A DNA stretch of 64,000 bases from an uncultured Nitrososphaeraceae archaeon (GTDB lineage Archaea; Thermoproteota; Nitrososphaeria; Nitrososphaerales; Nitrososphaeraceae), in assembly GCA_963837175.1 (NCBI GenBank), contig CAWIMJ010000052.1, forward strand, positions 1 to 64,000, given 5' to 3'. Below the pieces are notes generated by a model. The model did no database searches, was not told the origin of the DNA, and worked only from the letters and a program-made list of their open reading frames with translations. The translations under genes and the position numbers were made by a program. Positions 3,202-40,175 of this stretch are shown here, piece by piece. Position 1 is the stretch's first letter. Each line of letters starts with the position of its first letter.

Positions 3202-3847
3202 ATCTACTACTTGCAATAAAACATCCTAATTAAAACCTTATGAGAAATAAGGATTGAGAATGGAGGAATAAATCTAGTATCATTGGAGATCGAAGAATAC
3301 AGGAAAGCCTAATTGTAGAGTAATCACAGATGGCATAAAAATAGAAGCTTGGATAAAGATTTTAACGTCCTTTCATCAAAAATTTTAAAATAATTGAGAG
3401 AGACAGCCAAAACCATGAGCATGTAAGGAATATTGGAGATGGATGAATGTATCCGGTAGAACATCTACATTGGAATAATGTAAAAAAAGAAGGTACAGAT
3501 TGGATAGCCTTGCATTTGTGTTTGTTTCTAGGAATATTGGATATTGTGACTCATCCGTAGGACTGCATGCAACCACACATTTTAAACAAACAGGACAGCC
3601 TTCACTGATAACATTACTTAATAAATCATGATAACAGTCTAAATTTACAAATCATATGCATGTAGATAATCAGATAATCTATATATCTATCCATATATCT
3701 ATCTAATATTTTCAAATTGTCTTGAATACCGTCGGATGTAGATTCTATTAAGAAAGTTAAGGCTTTCCCCTTAAGATTATACCTATTGGGGATAATTGAA
3801 TCATTATGTAACCCATTTATACTTGTATAACTGTCTCATAATGGATA

Positions 3848-3934
3848 ATGAGTAGTCAACCAAAGGAAGAAGAAGAATTGCAGGAATCGGAAACTGAAGA
3901 AGAATTAGTAGAAGAAAATCCACCTGCAAATTAA
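3848..3934 (+). CDS. 28-aa acidic micro-peptide
   Basis: MSSQPKEEEELQESETEEELVEENPPAN. TTTATA lies about 30 bp upstream and a T-run lies downstream. Confidence 0.5.
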   Translation: MSSQPKEEEELQESETEEELVEENPPAN

Positions 3935-4267
3935 TATATTATTTTTGAGAGAAATAAATAGAGAATTTTATAGGATGCTCCAGAACACTAATTCTCTTGA
4001 GGATCGATGCGAGTCAAAGTCACTGAATCTTTTACCACAGGATAATATATATGCGCCGTGTTGCTTCATTAATGTGAAAAGGATATTCAAACATTTTTCG
4101 AATGCAGTTTTTAAGTAATCATAAGAAAATGCAATAAATTCGATCTATATATTCATAATTAAAAAAATATAAATCTGTACGTTTTCGATATCCCAGTTAG
4201 TATGTACAAAGTAATTAGATTTAGATATTAATTATAATATCTGTTTTATCTACAATTATTATTTATA

Positions 4268-4520
4268 ATGGAACGCAATAACAACAACAATACCATTCTT
4301 AGATAGAATACTAATAGCAGATCAATATGTATTAAAGGCTAAGGTCTTTTAAGTTTGCAAAAATACGATGAAGCAAATAGACTGTTTTGATAACTCTGTT
4401 AGGATAAATATCCTATATAGTGAAGCGTAGAGTTAGTGAGGAGGTTAAGGCTCTTCCTAGTTTAGGATATTATAAAAAGGCAATAAAATATTATGACACT
4501 TATACAAATGAATTCAAATT
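4268..4520 (+). pseudogene. TPR-repeat protein remnant
   Basis: Fragments LLSLQKYDEA/DCFDNSVRIN and ALPSLGYYKKAIKYYD, with stops and frameshifts. Confidence 0.55.
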
Positions 4521-4654
4521 GATACTTTCACAACCAAGTGGACAACTAATTACTCAAATTACAAAGGTTGGGCTCATGCAAGGATACAAGATATAGATAA
4601 TTTCTGCTTTGCAGCCAGATGGATCTTTTTTAATTTATTTTGGAATAATATTGC

Positions 4655-5128
4655 TTGGCCGAATTTGTACCTAGTATAAATGTCATCCCACTGTTCTGCT
4701 TCTACTCTCTCCCTCCTAGTCCCCAAGGTTCTGGTACTTCTATATATCACAATTGTAAATATTTTTTCACTATGAAATTGAACTGGTTTAAGTATAATCT
4801 AAAACCTTCTAATGAAGATCTATTAAATATTTTAAAACGAATTGAAAGAGCGTATAATATAGTTGAGCTAAATAAACAAGAACAAATAATATTTGAAAGG
4901 GACAGACAACAGCAGTTATTTGGCGTACTAAGTACTAAAGATAAAAGCAAATCCTATGAAGTTAATCCAGATATTAAGACCTGTACGTGTCCTGATTTTA
5001 ATTTTAGGCTGCTGAAATGCAAACATATTATTGCAGTTGAACTTGTAAGTTTGTTATCATCATTTCCACAAACCGGTCCACAATCATTATCGCCGTCTTC
5101 ATCATCATCATCTGTCATAGCGGCTTGA
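4655..5128 (+). CDS. SWIM zinc-finger protein (true start possibly the ATG at 4772)
   Basis: YEV...CTCPDF...CKHIIAV SWIM signature. Confidence 0.8.
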   Translation: MAEFVPSINVIPLFCFYSLPPSPQGSGTSIYHNCKYFFTMKLNWFKYNLKPSNEDLLNILKRIERAYNIVELNKQEQIIFERDRQQQLFGVLSTKDKSKSYEVNPDIKTCTCPDFNFRLLKCKHIIAVELVSLLSSFPQTGPQSLSPSSSSSSVIAA

Positions 5129-24693: not shown

Positions 24694-25939
24694 TTATTCT
24701 TTATCTTTATGTTCTTCTTCAGGAGCCTTTATCTTTCTAAAGTTTACATATAGTCCTATATCATAAGCTATTTTGAGTAATCCTCCTATAATAAAAGGAG
24801 TAGATAATGAGAGGGTATTGATGATAATACCCGTTAATGATGGACTAATAGCTTGCGCTATATTTCTTGATATATTAGTAATGCCAGCTGCTGCAACTCT
24901 TTCTTCTTCATTAACTACAGCAATAATATAAGACTGTCTTGTAGGAACATCCATCTGTGATAAAGCCATCCTTGCTAAATAGAATACAATGGCTACTGGA
25001 AGAGAAGGAGCAAATGCAACAAGAATAATGAGTACATTGGAAGGTATATGAGTAAAAACCATAGTATTAATCAATCCCACTTTATCTGCAATCTTTGAGG
25101 CACCTATAAATGAAAAAGCAGTAAGTACTCCAGCTACAGAGAAAATGTAAGATAATGTTGTTAAATCTGCTCCAAATTTAATAAAAAACCAAAATGAGAC
25201 AATACTTTGAATAACAAAACCGCCTGCAAATGAATCAATAGCAAAAAGACCGGATAGCTTAGCAACTATATTCTTAGACCTTGGCGATAACGTTTGTGTT
25301 AATGGCCTTGATATCTTTCCTTCTACTTCTATCCTATTTGATAATAAAAGATAGATTCCTATTACAACAATACCCATTATACTATACAAAATAAAAAGTA
25401 TTTTCATAGAATCAATTTGGTTTAATGTATTAAATTGATGTCTGAAGAATTGGTGGTAGACCAGAAAGTACAACTCCTCCAGACATTGCAAATGTTCCAA
25501 CCATATTATAAATTGCAAAAATAATATTCCTTTTCTTTCGGTTTTTTATTGTTTGTGGAAGCATAGCTTGTTCAATAGACAGAAATGGTCCTGTCTCTGA
25601 GCCAGTTACATTGATAGTTCCAATAAAAGCTGCTACAATTAGCATAAACTGGTTTTCTGTGCTAGCAAAGATTCCACCAGAGATTGACATTAATGCCGCA
25701 TAAATAATTAGAATTTTTCGTCTTCCTATTCTATCTGCATAAAAACTAGCTATTAGAGTAAAGATTACACTGTTTACTAATGTTACCGTAAGTATTAATC
25801 CAATGAAAGGATCATCAAATCCAATCAACTTCAGATAAATAGCGAGAATAATACTCAGAAAACCATAAGAAAATGTTCTAACCATTTTAGCAGCCAATAA
25901 TAGTTTACCATCGTTTGAAATCCAACCAAAAGTGAACAA
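24694..25939 (-). CDS. MFS transporter, +1 frameshift at about 25441
   Basis: ADRIGRRK motif A in the N-half; ADKVG and MDVPTRQSY in the C-half. Deleting one A joins LQ|HQFNTL. Confidence 0.9.
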
Positions 25940-27180
25940 CTTTGAGTAAATATTATAAAAATAGTCATTTTAAAGTATTTGGAATAATATTAATTGTTAC
26001 TTTTACATCGTCTCCGTCTGTCTTGATCAATTATGATTTGTCTTTTTCAGAAAAGTCAATGAAGAATTGAAAAAGATGCCAGAGATTGCAGAATTTGAGT
26101 TCAAAGCATTTATGATATAATTTTAAAAATAATGCAGATTCAGAAGAGCAATTGTATGAGATTGTTGAGAGGAAAGTAAGAGCAGGAGAAGAAATTAAAA
26201 TGTTTTAATTATGATTATTATATAGTCCGAGGGTCCAAATAGAGGAAGAGAAAGAGTAAGCGATAGTTCTTTTCAAGCCTTTTTTTATCATTACACAGAG
26301 ATGACAGTTTCAAAAAAGTCTCCATCTAACTAAACATATCCATATGAAAACATCTGATATCCTTTTGCAACTAGATTAGAGACATAATAGAAATGGTTTT
26401 ATTATTTTGGATTAATAATTACTGGTACGTGCAGGATTATGTGGTATCTGGAACAATAAACAAGAATTAGTTGATATTTGATATGTATACAGTTCTTCTG
26501 ATTTCATATTGAATTTTTTGATTTCTTTTGTTTATTAGATAGTTTTCTTCAGCTTTAATTTGTTGCTCTGTAAATTGCATAAGTTGTTCATAATGATGAA
26601 ATATAATAGACATAAGAATTGGCTGTATCCTTGTAGGTTTAGCGCAGCTATAAAGCCAAGCTGGTAGAATGGTAATATCATGCTCGCTATATTATGATAC
26701 TAATTTAGTACCTTAATCATAATTTATTTTAGCAAATGTCAGAAAGTGAAAAAACAAAGTGGAGATTAAGTACGGCATCTGATCAAAGAGATATAGCTTC
26801 ATCACTACACCAACAGAAGAGCAGGAAAAAAGGCAGAAATTACAAGAAAGAGTATACAAACAAAAGCAGAAGATATAGGTAGTGGAAGAGACTGAAGCCT
26901 TGTTACTAAAACAGAAGAAGTACCTATAACTGAACTGAACCTAGAAAACAGCAAAGAAAACAAGGAAGAAATTTTCTTAAGTCAAGTGATACTACAATGA
27001 ACAAAGAACCCATTAACAACTTAGCCACCATATCTAAGTAGCTTGAAAAAAACAAGCAAATTAACTGCCTAGAATAGAAAAGATTAGTTAACAATCACAA
27101 AAGCTTTCAATAAAATTGATAAACAATCAATCTTCTTCTAATCAATTAACTTCATAAATCACTTAGTTGAGTAAATAACA

Positions 27181-27393
27181 ATGTCGTCTGAATTTAACTC
27201 TGTTTCTGAATTAAAGAAATTACTTGATGCCAATTGCAAAATAGAAAAAATACAACCTTCTGTTTTTGCTTCAGATGCAGAAGTAAACATTGTAATAGTA
27301 ACAGTAGTATGTCCTGATGGTAAAACACAAACAATCAAAACTTATAGAGAAGAAGCAGCTGCTTTGAGAGAATTTATAAGAACATATAGATAG
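27181..27393 (+). CDS. Hypothetical protein
   Basis: Clean 70-aa ORF with an AT-rich promoter-like sequence about 30 bp upstream. Confidence 0.7.
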   Translation: MSSEFNSVSELKKLLDANCKIEKIQPSVFASDAEVNIVIVTVVCPDGKTQTIKTYREEAAALREFIRTYR

Positions 27394-27571
27394 ACGGGAT
27401 ATTCATTTATCTGAAGGGTAAAAGCAAGGAAGTAAGGAAACTTTAAAGTTTGGTATATTATTATTACTATGATAGTAACCTATTTTTTACACCAATATTG
27501 TCACTGATTACATTGAACCTACAAATTATACACATTACTATCTTGATCTGACCATTCTCTTGATCTCTAAG

Positions 27572-28807: not shown

Positions 28808-29158
28808 ATGGAAGAAAAAGGTCATAGCGATAGCAATAGCGACAAAGATGATAAAAACGATTTAACTCATTCCAATCAATTTACACCAATTATGCCTTTA
28901 TGGCAACAATTTTCGCCTGTGGCTTGGAATAATATGTACAATGAATATATTAAATACACAACAAGAATGACTGAGATATACAATGAATATATTAAAAGCT
29001 CAGAAAGGATGGCTGAACTGTACAAAGAATTAGCTGCAAATACACACAGAATGACTGAACTGTACAAAGAATCTGCTAAGAGCACAGAGAAAATTACTAA
29101 TTATTGGTCAGACTTTTTTTGGAAGCCTTTGTCAGCGGCAAAAAAAGAAGAAGAATAA
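28808..29158 (+). CDS. Amphipathic helical repeat protein (four 14-aa repeats)
   Basis: MYNEYIKYTTRMTE/IYNEYIKSSERMAE/LYKELAANTHRMTE/LYKESAKSTEKITN, with 42-bp periodicity in the DNA. Confidence 0.75.
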   Translation: MEEKGHSDSNSDKDDKNDLTHSNQFTPIMPLWQQFSPVAWNNMYNEYIKYTTRMTEIYNEYIKSSERMAELYKELAANTHRMTELYKESAKSTEKITNYWSDFFWKPLSAAKKEEE

Positions 29159-29484
29159 GAATAAGGAAAAAAGGGCAAAGAATAATGTAATATACTAAAT
29201 AAGTTTTTTTTACATATTCTGAACTATCAAAAGAAAAATTACTATTTTACCGAAAATCAGAATCAATCAACAGTAACGATTGAGCGTAAGAATAGATTTA
29301 ATCTTTACAATTATCTTTGACAGGAAGGGAAATATCTGAATAAAGTAATAGAAGAGGTCAAAGAGAAAAGAAAACAGTGAAGAAAAATGTGAGTCATTAG
29401 TGTTTCTATCAACATCACCAATGATTAATCTATACTTGATCCTTGCTAAGCCAGACAACCTGATAGAAAATCTCAGTCATCGTC

Positions 29485-30879
29485 TTACTCTACAAGTAAC
29501 TTACTTTCGATATCTTTTATGACTATTGATTTTATATTAACAAATTCCCTAATACCATATTTATATAACTCCCTCCCATTACCAGAATGTTTTATCCCCC
29601 CAAAAGGCATCCTAGGATCAGTTTTAACTATTTCATTAACTGATACCATTCCGCTTTGAATTTGCCTTGCAAGATGGATACCTCGTTCAATGTTATTTGT
29701 CCATATACTCGCTCCAAGACCAAATTCCGAATTGTTTGCTTCTCTAATAGCTTCTTCTTCATTATTTACAACTATTATTGGAGCAACAGGACCATATACT
29801 CCTTCTCTTAATATATCCATTTGAGGAGTAACATTTGATATTATTGTTGGTTCATAAAAATATCCTTCTCTATTAATTACGTTACCCCCTGTTAATATTT
29901 TTCCACCTTTTGATTTTGCATCGTCAACCTGCCTGGTCAATGCTTGTCTATGGTTTTCTCTAATCAAAGGTCCAATGGTTGTCTGTGGATCCATGGGATC
30001 GCCTACGATTTCTGCTTTAATATTTTCTACAAATAGTTTCGAGAATTTTTCTGCAATTTCTCTTACTACAATAAATCTTTTTGCTGAAATGCTGCTTTGA
30101 CCAGTATTGAGAAGTCTTGATTGGATCGCCATATCCACAGTATAACTTAGGTCTGCATCTTCTAGAACCACAAACGGATCACTTCCACCTAATATCAAAA
30201 CAAATTTCTTTAAATTTTTAGACGCTAATTCTCCTATTCTCTTTCCTGCTCGTAAATTTCCATTTAATGATACTGCCTCAATTTCTGATTGTACAAGGAG
30301 TTCTCCTGATCTGTGATCTCCAATGACAACTTGGAATACATTCTCTGGAAATCCTGCATCTTTGAATGCTTGTTCAATTTTCAAAGCACTTCCAGGGCAT
30401 TTGCTAGAATGCTTTAGAATTCCTACATTTCCAACTGTTAATGTAGGGACTGCAAATCGTACTACCTGCCAAAAAGGAAAATTCCATGGCATGATAGCAA
30501 CTACTACTCCAAGAGGCTCAAATGAAACAAAACTTTTACGAAATTCAGTAGGAATTATCTGGTCACCCAAGAAAGACTCTGCACGTTCAGCGTAATAATC
30601 GCTAACCCATTCACATTTTTCTATTTCTGCAATTGATTGTTTTATAGGCTTACCAGTTTCTTCCGTAATTAGCTTTGCAAATGCTTCTTTATTTTTTCTC
30701 ATAACCCTTGCCAGGCTATGCATATAGAGAGCACGTTCTGAATTATCCAGTTTTTTCCATTGTTCTAAGGCTAGCCTTGAATTTTTGACCTTTTGAATGA
30801 TTTCGTCAGAATCCATATTCTCATAGGTTGCAATAACTTTTCCACTTGTAGGATTAATTGTTTCAATTGTTTTTGCCAT
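29485..30879 (-). CDS. Aldehyde dehydrogenase (succinate-semialdehyde DH-like) homologue lacking catalytic residues
   Basis: Full ALDH fold (IMPWNFP, FGGIKHSG.GRE) but with GQSS in place of GQSC and LILGG in place of LELGG. Confidence 0.92.
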   Translation of the reverse strand: MAKTIETINPTSGKVIATYENMDSDEIIQKVKNSRLALEQWKKLDNSERALYMHSLARVMRKNKEAFAKLITEETGKPIKQSIAEIEKCEWVSDYYAERAESFLGDQIIPTEFRKSFVSFEPLGVVVAIMPWNFPFWQVVRFAVPTLTVGNVGILKHSSKCPGSALKIEQAFKDAGFPENVFQVVIGDHRSGELLVQSEIEAVSLNGNLRAGKRIGELASKNLKKFVLILGGSDPFVVLEDADLSYTVDMAIQSRLLNTGQSSISAKRFIVVREIAEKFSKLFVENIKAEIVGDPMDPQTTIGPLIRENHRQALTRQVDDAKSKGGKILTGGNVINREGYFYEPTIISNVTPQMDILREGVYGPVAPIIVVNNEEEAIREANNSEFGLGASIWTNNIERGIHLARQIQSGMVSVNEIVKTDPRMPFGGIKHSGNGRELYKYGIREFVNIKSIVIKDIESKLLVE

Positions 30880-31059
30880 TTCTACAATAAGGATATTACT
30901 GGCTAATAATATAGTTTAGATTACTACCTTATTAATATCCTTTTATAACAAAGAAAATAGAATTGATGGAAGATAAAAATAATAATAATAATAATAATAA
31001 TATCATAGCTTCAAGTGCAAAATATGATGAAAGAGGATATTGTTATGCAGATTCTTATT

Positions 31060-31285
31060 CCCAAGAAAGAAAGATCAATCTGATTACGGAAGGTTTAGAA
31101 CCACTATATACTAAGGGTTAGCAAATATATCAAATGATAATGCTCAGACTGTTATCGATTTCACATTAAATACCAAAATAGAGGTAAATCTTTCAGATAA
31201 TCATATGAGAAAATTATATCAATCTATTAAACAAATTATCATAGTTTTATCATAATAAGAATCATTCAAAGAAATGAACAGAAGT
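31060..31285 (+). mobile_element. N-terminal remnant of a tyrosine integrase (thaumarchaeal type)
   Basis: ERKINLITEGLEPLYTKG..ISNDNAQTVIDF..KIEVNLSDNH..YINLLNKLS..SFKEM resembles the SAM-like N-terminus (recall). Frameshifted, with no catalytic domain. Confidence 0.6.
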
Positions 31286-31819
31286 CTTTCTTTCAGAACA
31301 GAAGTTAACAATTAGACACCATTTTGATTACATATTAATTATCCAAATCTAACAGCTTGTCTTAAATCATCCATCTATTGGTAGATTGAGTCCGCAGCGG
31401 CAATACCAAAATATCTGACGGAAGATATTCATGGCTAACTATGGGTAGCGTTATATCCATTCGGTATTTAACATCTAAACAGCAAGGCTACTCTAATGAT
31501 AATGCACTAAAAAGAAGGAGAGTGAAGTATTTATTTAAGATGGAAATCAAACACTTTTTCTTTTCAAAGCGTGTCATATGTATACGTATGATGTATTTTC
31601 TATCCCTAGTACTCAGAAATGATAGTCAAAGGATATTTTATAACCAAGAAGCGAACATCTTTTAGTCCTAATTCTAGTAAATAGCACTAATAATCATATC
31701 AACTACCACACGTATATTATTATAAATTAACTTTGAAGCAGCATCTTTGCTTTATCATTACCTGTCTCCCTCGCTGTCTCTTTGGTGCTTCAAACCTTAT
31801 TTGCATGATAAATGACACC

Positions 31820-32041
31820 ATGTTATTGAACTTGAAGGAATCACCATCATCATCACCATTAGTACAATCAACACTACCATTAAGATCACTACAAGAAATA
31901 CTACATAATAGAATCGTACAAAAGAAAGGAGAAATACATAAATCTCATAATAAAGCCTATAATGATAGCCTGTGGACTGAAATAGAAACATTACACTGGG
32001 TCTTGGCTCAAATACCCAAGCTGCTGCAACGATCACCATAA
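31820..32041 (+). CDS. ~70-aa helical hypothetical protein, intact member of a dispersed family
   Basis: PLRSLQEILHNRIVQKKGEIHKSHNKAYNDSLWTEIETLHWVLAQI. Paralogs at 56199 and 1355. Confidence 0.7.
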   Translation: MLLNLKESPSSSPLVQSTLPLRSLQEILHNRIVQKKGEIHKSHNKAYNDSLWTEIETLHWVLAQIPKLLQRSP

Positions 32042-32209
32042 CTGCTAAAGCTAATAATAGTAATAGTTAAATTGCTGTATTCAATATTAGAGTGGAAGCC
32101 AAAACCTCATGTATGAGCACTTTTTTGAGCCATCACGTGATTATATCACTTTGACTCTGCTAATGTAAATGCTTGTGTAAAATTTTTAAACTCAATTACG
32201 ACATTGTAG

Positions 32210-32745: not shown

Positions 32746-33080
32746 TTAACATGATCTCATTATTTTATTTATTTCTTTTTACTATCTCTTCATTTTCAAT
32801 CGGCTCTCTAAAAAAGAGTTTTACCTAATTCACAACAATCTTGTTTTCTAAAATTTTTTATAATACATTTTGCTAACTGTTAAAAAGCAGGCTTTGATTT
32901 TTGATGTCTTGATTTTTCATTTCCTGATATAATTCAAAGCCATCCATTTGTGGCATTTTAATATCAAGGATAACCAAGTCATAAGAAACTGGTCTGAAAT
33001 TCGATAATGTTATCAGATGATCATTAAATGATCAACTCTAAATCCATTTTCCTCTTCAAACTTCCTTGCAAGTTCAATCT
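32746..33080 (-). pseudogene. Response regulator pseudogene
   Basis: YDLVILDIKMPQMDGFELYQEMK, KACFLT and PIENEEIVK, with frameshifts. Similar to 59569-59943. Confidence 0.8.
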
Positions 33081-34315: not shown

Positions 34316-34647
34316 TTTTGCATTCTACTATTCTTGAATCAAAATATAATACTTTTCCTTATTGCTCATAATTATGAACTGAAACAGAACCCGTAATAAA
34401 AGAAAATCTGTATCTATACAAATTAATAATATTCTCATTATCTGGATCAAATTTGACAGAGAGGTTGGAAAGGTATACAAACATATTTGATTTATTTGAC
34501 ATAGTAAATTTTTTAAATGTCTTAAGATAATAATAATAAAAGATATTTTTGAAATATTAACTTGTTCTCGTATAAAAAGAGGATCTTATAAACAATTTTA
34601 TTATACTATTATTAGTAATTAAGTACATATCAACAGCAGTAACATAT

Positions 34648-35006
34648 ATGGCTAACAAACAAAACTTGAACAAAAGTTAGGTGAGGCACTCGGTTTAGAA
34701 ATGGCAACTCAAAAAGCAGTTGAAGAACTTAGCTCAAAAGGCTTATTGGAGCAAGGAGGGATGAAGACTAAATTACAAGGAATGAAACGAGAAGCTAACA
34801 ATCATCAGACACAGACTGAAGAATTAGTTCAAAGATTATCTCAGTCAGAAGGCTTGAATTCTGAAACTATCCAAGAATCAGCAAAAGAAACTGAGCATAA
34901 AGCTTCTAAGATAATGCAAACTTATCTGGGTGAAGATCCTGATTCTTCAGAAGCATTAGAGTTTTTGTGTCTAGCAGAAGGTGGTGGGGTAACACTCCAC
35001 TTTTGA
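34648..35006 (+). pseudogene. Ferritin-like four-helix protein, frameshifted at the start and truncated
   Basis: ATG 34648 is out of frame with KLEQKLGEALGLEMATQKA..EANNH..ALEFLCLAEGG; the last helices are missing. Confidence 0.65.
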
Positions 35007-35140: not shown

Positions 35141-35356
35141 TCACTTGTTCATTCTAATAACATCTACTTGACCACTATGCAACCAATTCTTTAGTTCTTC
35201 ATGACTTGGCTTAACATCATGCTTGCCGGCCAAATGAAGGTGCAAAAATGCATAGTTAATCTGATTTAGCAATGGCTTGTTTTGTTCATCACCATTACGG
35301 CTTTTCTGCTGTAAATCAACTGGAACTGTCTTCCACCAATCGTTGAAGCTTCTCAT
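35141..35356 (-). CDS. Hypothetical protein
   Basis: Clean 71-aa ORF with TTTATAA about 25 bp upstream (leaderless). Confidence 0.75.
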   Translation of the reverse strand: MRSFNDWWKTVPVDLQQKSRNGDEQNKPLLNQINYAFLHLHLAGKHDVKPSHEELKNWLHSGQVDVIRMNK

Positions 35357-35733
35357 GTTGTGATAAGTATTAGATTATAAAGGCTTTAAAGATTGGGATA
35401 TATCTTAACTTTTAGGCTTGAATATAGCTTAAACTGGAGGTTACCGTCAACTACTTTGTTATTAGCATTATTGTTATTCCCATCCCAACAGAAAATGCCT
35501 CAGTCATTACTTTCATTTTGCCTTTTCAGCATAATCTAATTCTTCATGAATATTCTTGATTTAATTATTATCATGATATAGATGCCTGTGGTACAAATTT
35601 GATTCAAATCTGTCTTGTATCCCACTGAACGAATGAGCTATATCATTTATTCAAAAAATAGAATGCAGAGGTTTAAGAAATAGAGAGGCAGAAACAAAAT
35701 ATTTAACATACATACGTCTGGTTAAAAAATTAG

Positions 35734-36012
35734 CTACCTTCTTCTTGCCACTATTGTATGTGTTTGCTCTACATACCATCTAATAGTATCTTTAAACTTT
35801 GACCACCAATCTAAAAATGAATCAGCACTATCAGCTTCAAATAACAAAAAACCATTGTATTCTGTTCCCCATGCATGGACATATTCCCCTACTAGCTCAA
35901 TACCAGAAGGTAAGTTATTCTTCAATTCGCGCCATTCATCATTAGCTTTTTGAGTTTCTTCTTTAGTCATTGCTTTAAATCGATAAAATACTAAGAATGC
36001 AGTAGCAACCAT
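35734..36012 (-). CDS. Dimeric alpha+beta barrel protein (GYD/DUF3303-like)
   Basis: FLVFYRF, GIELVGEYVHAWGTEYNGFLLFEADS ferredoxin-like pattern. Confidence 0.7.
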   Translation of the reverse strand: MVATAFLVFYRFKAMTKEETQKANDEWRELKNNLPSGIELVGEYVHAWGTEYNGFLLFEADSADSFLDWWSKFKDTIRWYVEQTHTIVARRR

Positions 36013-38731: not shown

Positions 38732-40175
38732 TTGTTTTTAAATTACTATAAATTGCTTAAAGCAGCATTAAGATACGATAATGGTACCATCTTGATAACA
38801 GGTATTGCTCATATACCTTTTGCCACAGTTGATCCAAGGACAAATCACTTGAGAGCACAGGCATTATACTATCAAAATATTGTAGAGTATCTAAAGCAAA
38901 GTGAGATAGTCTGTGATGATTATGTTTTAGATCTAATACCTTCTCCAAATATTTTGATAGATAATAATAATAATAATACTAAAAACAACAACAACAACAA
39001 TAACCACCACCTTACTTTAAGAGACTACCAACAAAAGGCACTTGATAATTGGTCTAAAGCAGGTAAGAGAGGATGTGTAGTCTTACCAACAGGCTCAGGC
39101 AAGACTGTTATTGGGGTGAAGGCAATAGAAATGGTAAACTCTGCCTCTCTAATTATAGTTCCCACAATAGATCTTATGGATCAATGGACATCAGGTACTA
39201 TCAAAATATTTTCCTAATATCAAAATTGGAAATTTGGGTGGTGGGGTAGATGATATTCAGGCAATAACAGTATCCACATATGATTCAGCATACATAAGAG
39301 CATCTAATCTTGGTAATAGATTTGCTTTAATTATTCTCGACGAGGTTCACCATCTGGCGGCACCGGGCTATAGAACAATCGCAGAGCAGTTTGCATCTCC
39401 GTTTCGTTTGGGGTTGACTGCTACAATTGAGAGAGAAGATGAGTTACATAAAGACTTTCCACGGCTTGTTGGCGGTGTTGTGTTTCAAGCACACGCTTTC
39501 GATCTTGCCAAAAACAAACATCTAGCTTCTTATGAAATTGAAAGAAGACAAGTAGATATGCTGCCAGAAGAGCTTGAAGAATACAAAAAGCAGTTTGGTA
39601 TATATCAAGTTTGTTTGAAGAAGGTAGGACTAAGAATGAACTATGCTGGTGCCTTTAGACGATTGATAATGATCTCTGGAAGAAGCATTGCTGCAAGAGA
39701 GGCTGTGTTAGCAAGAAATAAGGCTATGGATATTGCGTTAAACAGCAGATCTAAAATAGAAGAATTAAGAAAAATATTAGCAGAAAATAGGGGTCTTAGG
39801 ACAATAATATTTACTCAACATAACAAATTAGTATATGAGATATCAAATAGATTTCTAATACCATTTATAACCCATAAATCCGGCAAGGAAGAAAGACAGC
39901 ACACTTTAAGTGGATTTAAAGATGGAAGGTACAATGCCATAGTTACATCCAAAGTCTTAGATGAAGGAGTAGATGTTCCAGATGCACAACTGGGAATAAT
40001 TCTTAGTGGAACTGGTAGCAGCAGGGAATTTATCCAGAGATTAGGAAGATTGCTACGACCTAAACCCGATTCAAATAGAAAAGCAAAGCTAATTGAAATT
40101 ATATCCTCAGGTACTAGAGAGACAGGAACCAGTGCTAAAAGGAAAAAGGCATTGAACAGAGTAGAAGATGGATAA
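38732..40175 (+). CDS. XPB/Rad25-like SF2 DNA helicase, +1 frameshift at about 39194
   Basis: LRDYQ, LPTGSGKT, DEVH, LGLTAT, VLDEGVDVP, QRLGR. Removing one G gives WTSVLSKYFPNIKIGNLGGG. Confidence 0.92.

Follow-up and report, generated by a model that had tools for sequence, protein, structure and literature searches.

A probable aldehyde dehydrogenase pseudoenzyme kept intact by purifying selection in ammonia-oxidising archaea of the Nitrososphaeraceae

An open reading frame (ORF) of 464 codons at positions 29485..30879 (minus strand) of a 64,000-nucleotide stretch of DNA from an uncultured Nitrososphaeraceae archaeon (assembly GCA_963837175.1, contig CAWIMJ010000052.1, positions 1 to 64,000; henceforth the window) encodes a full-length member of the aldehyde dehydrogenase (ALDH) superfamily whose catalytic residues have been replaced. 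They are gone from all 12 sequences of the clade to which the protein belongs, across species, while the gene evolves under purifying selection (dN/dS, or omega, of 0.12-0.18 with a confidence interval (CI) that stays below 0.28), and matching sequence is found in RNA libraries. In our judgement the product is probably an ALDH pseudoenzyme that selection has maintained and that binds without oxidising, and not the product of a decaying gene. An earlier note on this DNA, made from the letters alone, had proposed much the same: an ALDH with a selectively erased active site, retained for a non-catalytic role. The contig belongs to a genome (G000) of 3.81 Mb in 58 contigs, 91% complete. Because this genome carries archaeal amoA and the close public homologues of the protein are labelled Nitrososphaera sp., Nitrososphaeraceae archaeon or Thaumarchaeota archaeon, its source is a soil ammonia-oxidising archaeon of the Nitrososphaeraceae. 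It holds three full-length ALDH genes: the window gene, a 71%-identical paralogue with all catalytic residues present (C47:83174-84565, the active paralogue that the earlier note had suggested looking for), and a 45%-identical copy on contig C16.

The ORF listing shows a frame that opens with ATG and is free of internal stops, and residues 3-452 match positions 7-461 of the 461 in the Pfam model PF00171 (Aldedh) with a score of 463 bits (cut-off 23), as the earlier description of an intact, full-length ALDH implied. The top NCBIfam model is NF006915, the equivalog of NADP-dependent succinate-semialdehyde dehydrogenase (SSADH), at 476.4 bits and thus below its cut-off of 730, and the closest solved structure is the cyanobacterial SSADH of PDB entries 3VZ1 and 3VZ3 (E 2.4e-117, residues 4-455 on 5-457). 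The protein is classed here as SSADH-like and predicted to be catalytically disabled. Relative to 3VZ1 the motif LELGG has become LILGG, GQSCIA has become GQSSIS, LTGS has become LNGN and QEELFAP has become REGVYGP. Ser263 occupies the position of the nucleophilic Cys, its codon AGC (30091..30093, minus strand) lying one change from the TGC of the active paralogue, and Ile229 that of the general-base Glu, its codon ATA (30193..30195, minus strand) lying two changes from GAA; the assembled DNA contig X4 is identical at both codons and the RNA contig X15 at the first. The spacing of 34 residues between the two (263-229) equals that of Cys262 and Glu228 in the cyanobacterial enzyme (PMC7510979), in agreement with the C302/E268 spacing cited in the earlier note. 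The T-G-S cofactor motif is replaced by Asn206-Gly207-Asn208 (30256..30264, minus strand; N-G-S in 7 of the 12 clade members), and Gly360-Val361-Tyr362 (29794..29802, minus strand) stands in place of the Glu-Val-Phe that holds the nicotinamide-ribose Glu and the stacking Phe. Read directly, the codons at 206, 208, 360 and 362 are AAT, AAT, GGA and TAT, against ACC, AGT, GAA and TTT in the active paralogue. On the substrate side, Thr420 (29620..29622, minus strand) replaces the carboxylate-binding Ser (Ser419 of 3VZ3); it is Thr in 11 of the 12 clade members and Ser in 110/110 active homologues. Of the features that mark a catalytically active ALDH, the protein therefore lacks the nucleophilic Cys, the general-base Glu and the nicotinamide-side contacts, and keeps the oxyanion Asn. 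The earlier note's codon assignments, its NGN and EGVYGP readings and its retained PWNFP Asn all stand up to direct codon reading, to the 3VZ1 alignment and to the alignments of homologues.

Residue roles were carried over from the cyanobacterial SSADH (PMC7510979) by the constant numbering offset in the 3VZ1 alignment. On this mapping the oxyanion-hole Asn133 of PWNFP (30481..30483, minus strand) corresponds to Asn131, Trp137 and Arg141 (30457..30471, minus strand) to Trp135 and Arg139, which anchor the carboxylate of succinate semialdehyde, and Lys156 and Ser159 (30403..30414, minus strand) to Lys154 and Ser157, which determine binding of the NADP 2'-phosphate. All five are unvarying throughout the clade, and of the five residues that make up the substrate and 2'-phosphate set of the cyanobacterial enzyme four would be kept, Ser419 having become Thr420. 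The oligomerisation strands (residues ~110-124 and 445-457) hardly vary between the disabled sequences and the active ones. Mutagenesis of the cyanobacterial enzyme (PMC7510979) left C262A and E228A without activity; R139A binds the substrate more weakly, and E360A keeps 65% of the efficiency. By analogy with these mutants there is a strong case that dehydrogenase activity has been lost from the window protein, and the retained residues make it plausible that ligand binding and oligomerisation have not.

The replacements are not private to the window. Among 41 related genomes, a second species of the genus (G003) carries a full-length orthologue that is 90% identical, and in an alignment of 32 genome-derived homologues only these two proteins have Ile, Ser, Asn and Gly at the Glu, Cys, Thr and second-Glu positions, the other 30 keeping E, C, TGS and the E/F pair. 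A protein search of a collection of 5.8 billion proteins, from which the best 120 of 7904 matches were used, returned ten further members, the metagenome protein clusters P0001-P0010, that are 86-100% identical to the window protein, the next match being at 75%. All ten carry N-G-(S/N), L(I/V)LGG, GQSSIS and REGVYGP, whereas the 110 other homologues among these 120 have T206, E229, C263, E360 and F362 without exception, a division that does not come about by chance. The resulting alignment of 122 sequences comprises the 110 actives and 12 members of what may be called the dead clade (window, G003 and P0001-P0010), in which N206, S263 and G360 are fixed (12/12 each) and Y362 and I229 nearly so (11/12 each). 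Orthologues with the same substitutions, which the earlier note had proposed as a check, thus exist in G003 and in ten metagenome clusters, and these relatives do not retain the Cys and Glu. No further dead-clade DNA locus was present among the matches listed in scans of genome and metagenome contigs, the best of which were 72%-identical active homologues. Two observations concern individual members. Residue 201 (30277-30279), Asp in the remaining 11 members of the clade and in 97% or more of the actives, is Glu in the window protein; Glu201 is private to the source genome, the otherwise identical P0001 having Asp. Over residues 1-400 P0010 shares 96% identity with the dead-clade P0008 and 75% with the active P0011, and over residues 401-464 the corresponding figures are 72% and 91%; it is a chimera of dead and active copies, arisen either by recombination or gene conversion between paralogues or in assembly.

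The coding sequences (CDS) of the window and G003 differ at 123 of 1392 sites (nucleotide identity 91.2%), and third codon positions account for 71 of the 123 differences (p = 2.5e-8 against an expectation of one third). The residue is altered in 47 codons, and 64 others have synonymous differences only. The NG86 estimate of dN/dS for this pair is 0.180 (dN 0.050, dS 0.279; bootstrap 95% CI 0.118-0.273, the highest of 500 replicates being 0.318), and YN00 and maximum likelihood give 0.098 and 0.121. Active orthologues within the genus have omega values of 0.080, 0.117, 0.103 and 0.100, with intervals that span 0.053-0.170, and the CI of the dead pair shows partial overlap with three of these four intervals. 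Purifying selection on the dead copy is somewhat weaker than on the actives but clear. When 123 substitutions were placed at random, the frame stayed free of stops in 58 of 20000 trials (uniform placement) or 16 of 20000 (weighted by composition), and neither the window copy, the G003 copy nor the 10 database variants contain a stop or frameshift. The proposal that selection retained the gene after catalysis was lost, against which a dN/dS near 1 would have counted, thus agrees with the shared replacements, with a ratio whose CI (at the NG86 value of 0.18) lies well below 1 and with the intact frame. Between species of the genus, active ALDH orthologues are 88.6-90.4% identical and the RNA-polymerase region 88-90%, much like the dead pair, whose disabled state therefore dates from about the time of those species splits.

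In a tree the two dead copies pair with support of 100/100, and their stem is 0.23 substitutions per site long, compared with 0.05-0.08 in neighbouring clades. The pair is nested in a family clade of 19 members, the internal order of which is not resolved in the tree, and a duplication inside the genus is not rejected by an approximately unbiased (AU) test (p-AU 0.487); the dead clade may stem either from a within-genus duplicate or from an older paralogue. Conservation of at least 97% among the 110 actives marks out 267 columns; 26 of these are replaced in every member of the dead clade and 35 are polymorphic in it. The control was an active clade of 13 members with comparable diversity, in which 4 of 290 columns are replaced and 26 polymorphic; an active cluster of 97 sequences was uninformative, its reference containing its own close relatives. 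The pattern is one of a burst of change on the stem, followed by renewed constraint. The 26 replaced columns include the catalytic and nicotinamide-side positions 206, 229, 263, 360 and 362, the substrate-side positions 140, 417, 420 and 424, and 211, 215 and 216 in the helix that follows T-G-S, besides positions distant in sequence from any motif (54, 75, 80, 93, 246, 248, 291, 306, 310, 434, 440 and 454). The earlier note's view that the changes cluster at catalytic and cofactor sites holds in part: by motif position roughly half of the 26 lie in or beside pocket motifs, but the protein as a whole differs by 29% from its nearest active relatives. 'Selective erasure' is likewise right about the lost catalytic residues and overstated as a description, because many conserved positions outside the motifs were also replaced on the stem.

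Sequencing runs bear on the codons and on expression. Of the words sampled from the gene, a fraction of 0.97-1.00 is present in each of 14 DNA runs from soil or rhizosphere (5 studies), and any of these runs may be the source sample. A contig of 2869 nt assembled from the DNA run X4 spans 29300-30965 with 0 differences within the CDS, its 6 differing letters and 1 gap all lying upstream of the start; the codon check in independent DNA contigs that the earlier note had advised thus returned AGC and ATA. Two studies of soil metatranscriptomes supply contigs that agree with the gene at 98% or above: those of X15 cover 29981-30120 (0 differences, including the Ser263 codon), 30232-30380 and 30387-30536, and that of X16 covers 29573-29806. 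These contigs can be assigned to the dead clade because the active paralogue is only 73% identical to the window gene in DNA. They give a hint that the gene is transcribed.

These observations fit a history in which a paralogue of the Nitrososphaeraceae SSADH-like ALDHs underwent, on one long stem branch, the replacement of Cys by Ser263 and of Glu by Ile229 together with the loss of contacts on the nicotinamide side at three positions (Thr to Asn206, Glu to Gly360 and Phe to Tyr362), after which purifying selection has kept the gene intact. Because the fold, the oligomerisation strands, Asn133, Trp137/Arg141 and Lys156/Ser159 are kept, an ALDH-like assembly and ligand binding have most likely been retained. 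Its ligand would be a carboxy-aldehyde (succinate semialdehyde, for instance), the adenosine half of NADP(H), or both, with oxidation probably lost, and the protein could act in binding, buffering or sensing or be a subunit without catalysis of its own. Judged from sequence, its cellular role is likely to be non-catalytic, whether in ligand binding or as a subunit. A more specific version would make it a dedicated, non-oxidising binder of succinate semialdehyde, and perhaps of NADP(H) too, that buffers, shuttles or senses the aldehyde in certain soil ammonia oxidisers; we regard this as unlikely. The thaumarchaeal hydroxypropionate/hydroxybutyrate carbon-fixation cycle passes through succinate semialdehyde, a reactive aldehyde, and the binder would, if the proposal is true, descend from an enzyme that would otherwise drain this intermediate.

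Several points weigh against a selected, non-oxidising binding protein. Ser can be a weak nucleophile, so that residual or altered chemistry may persist. The omega of the dead copy is about 1.5-2 times that of the active orthologues, and the dN/dS comes from a single DNA pair. The gene is found in only 2 of 238 family genomes (G000 and G003), or 2 of 116 high-quality genomes. Its flanks are non-syntenic between the two species, so it may be dispensable. The contigs in RNA libraries may derive from contaminating DNA. An AlphaFold2 model from a 38-row alignment (mean pLDDT 67.3, pTM 0.76, with low confidence over 106-119, 320-366 and 409-464) lends no structural support; its poor quality is probably due to the shallow, near-uniform alignment. 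The motifs of the catalytic loops, finally, drift within the clade: position 229 is I or V, position 208 is S or N, and G003, with the motifs LILEGN and REGVSGP, carries G231E, S233N and Y362S. This drift fits relaxed constraint at the old active site, and the aligned sequences give no sign of a new, tightly conserved catalytic constellation.

The last point bears directly on whether the protein is still an enzyme with changed chemistry, Ser263 acting as nucleophile in ester or hemiacetal chemistry or in a very slow dehydrogenation, or the remodelled pocket (Asn206, Ile229, Gly360, Tyr362, Thr420) catalysing a non-redox reaction on a carboxy-aldehyde. The new residues are almost fixed in the clade (11-12 of 12), the substrate anchors and the oxyanion Asn are kept, and a burst on the stem followed by constraint is a signature of neofunctionalisation too. 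Yet Glu229 has given way to Ile or Val with no candidate general base in its place, the catalytic loop is still drifting in G003, loss of either catalytic residue abolishes activity in the closest characterised homologue (C262A and E228A; PMC7510979), and ALDHs with Cys replaced by Ser or Pro have been judged incapable of efficient dehydrogenation (PMC4207490). We consider an altered activity unlikely. The same degree of doubt attaches to a special case of the pseudoenzyme reading that the earlier note had named among its options, in which the protein is a non-catalytic subunit of mixed oligomers with the 71%-identical paralogue G000:C47:83174-84565 and tunes its activity. Such a partner does exist in the same genome, the near-invariance of the oligomerisation strands would permit mixing, and ALDH2 has an inactive variant known to exert its effect in heterotetramers (PMC10211241). 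Against it, the two genes are unlinked, lying on different contigs, and in G003 (96% complete, 470 contigs) a search with either protein as query returned, besides the dead copy, only ALDHs that are 52%, 49% and 29% identical to the paralogue and 46-47% and 28% identical to the window protein. The idea of a regulatory subunit is weakened by the fact that no close active paralogue was found in that genome.

Two further explanations would deprive the gene of any function or of its unusual codons. In favour of an incipient pseudogene, in which function was lost recently and a stop has yet to be acquired, are the gene's patchy distribution and its setting, rich in repeats and poor in synteny, with one or more broken genes close by. 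However, the dead state predates the split of two species whose copies now differ at 123 of 1392 sites with an omega of 0.12-0.18, two copies and ten variants are free of lesions, and the divergence of the pair matches that of active orthologues and the RNA-polymerase region; this explanation is largely refuted and we give it very little credence. An assembly or sequencing artefact at the key codons is less credible still, to the point of being negligible: nothing was found in its favour, and against it stand the same codons in G003, the same residues in 10 independent database clusters, and DNA runs of several studies that hold 97-100% of the gene's words, with an X4 contig identical across the CDS, even if these runs may include the source sample. 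The best-supported reading is that of a pseudoenzyme kept by selection, which would bind without oxidising.

The surroundings of the gene differ between the two species. A comparison of neighbourhoods in the two genomes (G000 and G003) finds only the CDS shared, together with 26 nt upstream (30880..30905, minus strand), where homology ends, and about 40 nt after the stop (29445..29484, minus strand). A dispersed repeat adjoins the gene upstream at 30907..31276, with copies on G000:C45 (77%) and G001:C273 (74%). The window neighbours are a glyoxalase/VOC-fold protein, a small repeat-containing ORF, a receiver-domain protein, a Mn catalase and a universal stress protein; those in G003 are a divergent ADH_N_2/ADH_zinc_N oxidoreductase of alkenal/one-reductase type (3638-4705, minus strand, of locus L043 from G003:C104) and a TerC protein, neither of which has a counterpart near either ALDH locus in G000. 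A shared theme of stress and detoxification, carbonyl or oxidative, in both genomes is suggestive only. The window between 24 and 36 kb is a mosaic, the homologues of its genes lying on separate contigs in sister genomes and several segments being multi-copy across the genus. No terminal direct or inverted repeats that would mark a mobile element bracket the gene. Recurring segments of 200-500 nt (window 25923-26376, 27182-27395, 31537-32050, 32759-33047, 34628-34995, 35145-35421 and 35619-36000) are 73-91% identical on many contigs of all 7 genus genomes, and some overlap short ORFs (31733-32041 and 34701-35006); they are either dispersed repeats or small multi-copy gene families.

An ORF of 116 aa without a Pfam match (28808-29158, plus strand) lies a short way downstream of the ALDH gene on the opposite strand and contains three tandem repeats of 42 nt (14 aa; 28935-29088) with a helical 'MTELYKE...' motif. 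A major facilitator superfamily (MFS) transporter 3.5 kb from the ALDH (24694-25939, minus strand) is split into two overlapping ORFs of 274 and 169 aa, and its orthologues in G002 and G005, 85% identical, are single ORFs of 418 aa; the split would reflect either a frameshifted gene or an assembly error. At 38732-40175 (plus strand) an XPB/Rad25-type helicase is distributed over two consecutive ORFs, of 161 aa (XPB_DRD and the start of ResIII) and 313 aa (the end of ResIII and Helicase_C). The earlier note's 'region full of decayed genes' is right in part: the MFS transporter is split relative to intact orthologues, and the helicase may be a split or a broken gene. Elsewhere in the genome, an ALDH relic at G000:C49:11889-12774 consists of two matched pieces, one with 3 TAG and 2 TAA codons and the other with 1 TAG and 1 TAA, and by its sequence is a true pseudogene, and an ALDH at G000:C9:123285-124686 lies in two stop-free frames side by side (323 and 229 aa). 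The decayed ALDH on C49 and the MFS gene, read as frameshifted, provide an internal contrast to the intact window gene.

The pattern of loss is informative, in that the chemistry and the nicotinamide contacts are gone and the substrate anchors and the adenosine-phosphate site are kept, which makes a binding-only role directly testable, with the active paralogue of the same genome as a ready comparison. In the databases the dead-clade proteins carry the automatic annotation 'aldehyde dehydrogenase', a name that would lead metabolic reconstructions to credit these soil nitrifiers with more aldehyde-oxidising capacity than they have. A literature search found no paper on a dead SSADH-like ALDH of ammonia-oxidising archaea, supplements not being covered by it.

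Among the kinase, phosphatase and protease families of eukaryotes pseudoenzymes are well known, and ALDHs themselves have been recruited to a non-catalytic role as the omega-crystallin of cephalopods and scallops, a structural protein of the animal lens. The nearest relatives of the dead clade are the active SSADH-like ALDHs of the Nitrososphaeraceae, named 'NAD-dependent succinate-semialdehyde dehydrogenase' in databases, which are 71-75% identical, likewise 464 aa long and colinear without gaps; they share with it the oxyanion Asn, the substrate anchors, the 2'-phosphate binders and the oligomerisation strands, and differ in T206N, E229I, C263S, E360G, F362Y and S420T, in 20 more of the columns conserved at 97% or above, and in the long stem. 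The cyanobacterial NADP-dependent SSADH (Synechococcus PCC 7002, PDB 3VZ1/3VZ3; Cyanothece cce4228) is matched in the window protein at Asn131, Trp135, Arg139, Lys154 and Ser157 and replaced at Cys262, Glu228, Ser207, Glu359/360 and Ser419. Vertebrate ALDH16A1 lacks catalytic residues as well and is considered a pseudoenzyme and binding protein (PMC8160307, PMC12041015), and a term search of a 2025 ALDH review finds 'pseudoenzymes' applied to vertebrate ALDH16 only (PMC12041015). ALDH16A1 belongs, however, to another ALDH family (Aldh16, cd07111), is eukaryotic and of independent origin, whereas the window protein best matches the SSADH type. A prokaryotic parallel is the second AldDH of GRM1 microcompartment loci, a paralogue that stands beside an active copy with its catalytic Cys replaced by Ser or Pro and has been proposed to act as scaffold or regulator (PMC4207490). 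That protein is CoA-acylating and encoded in an operon with shell proteins, in contrast to the SSADH-like window gene, which has no bacterial microcompartment (BMC) context and has also lost the base and the nicotinamide contacts. ALDH pseudoenzymes as such were thus already known, and the dead clade represents an independent origin of what is probably one within the SSADH-like family of ammonia-oxidising archaea.

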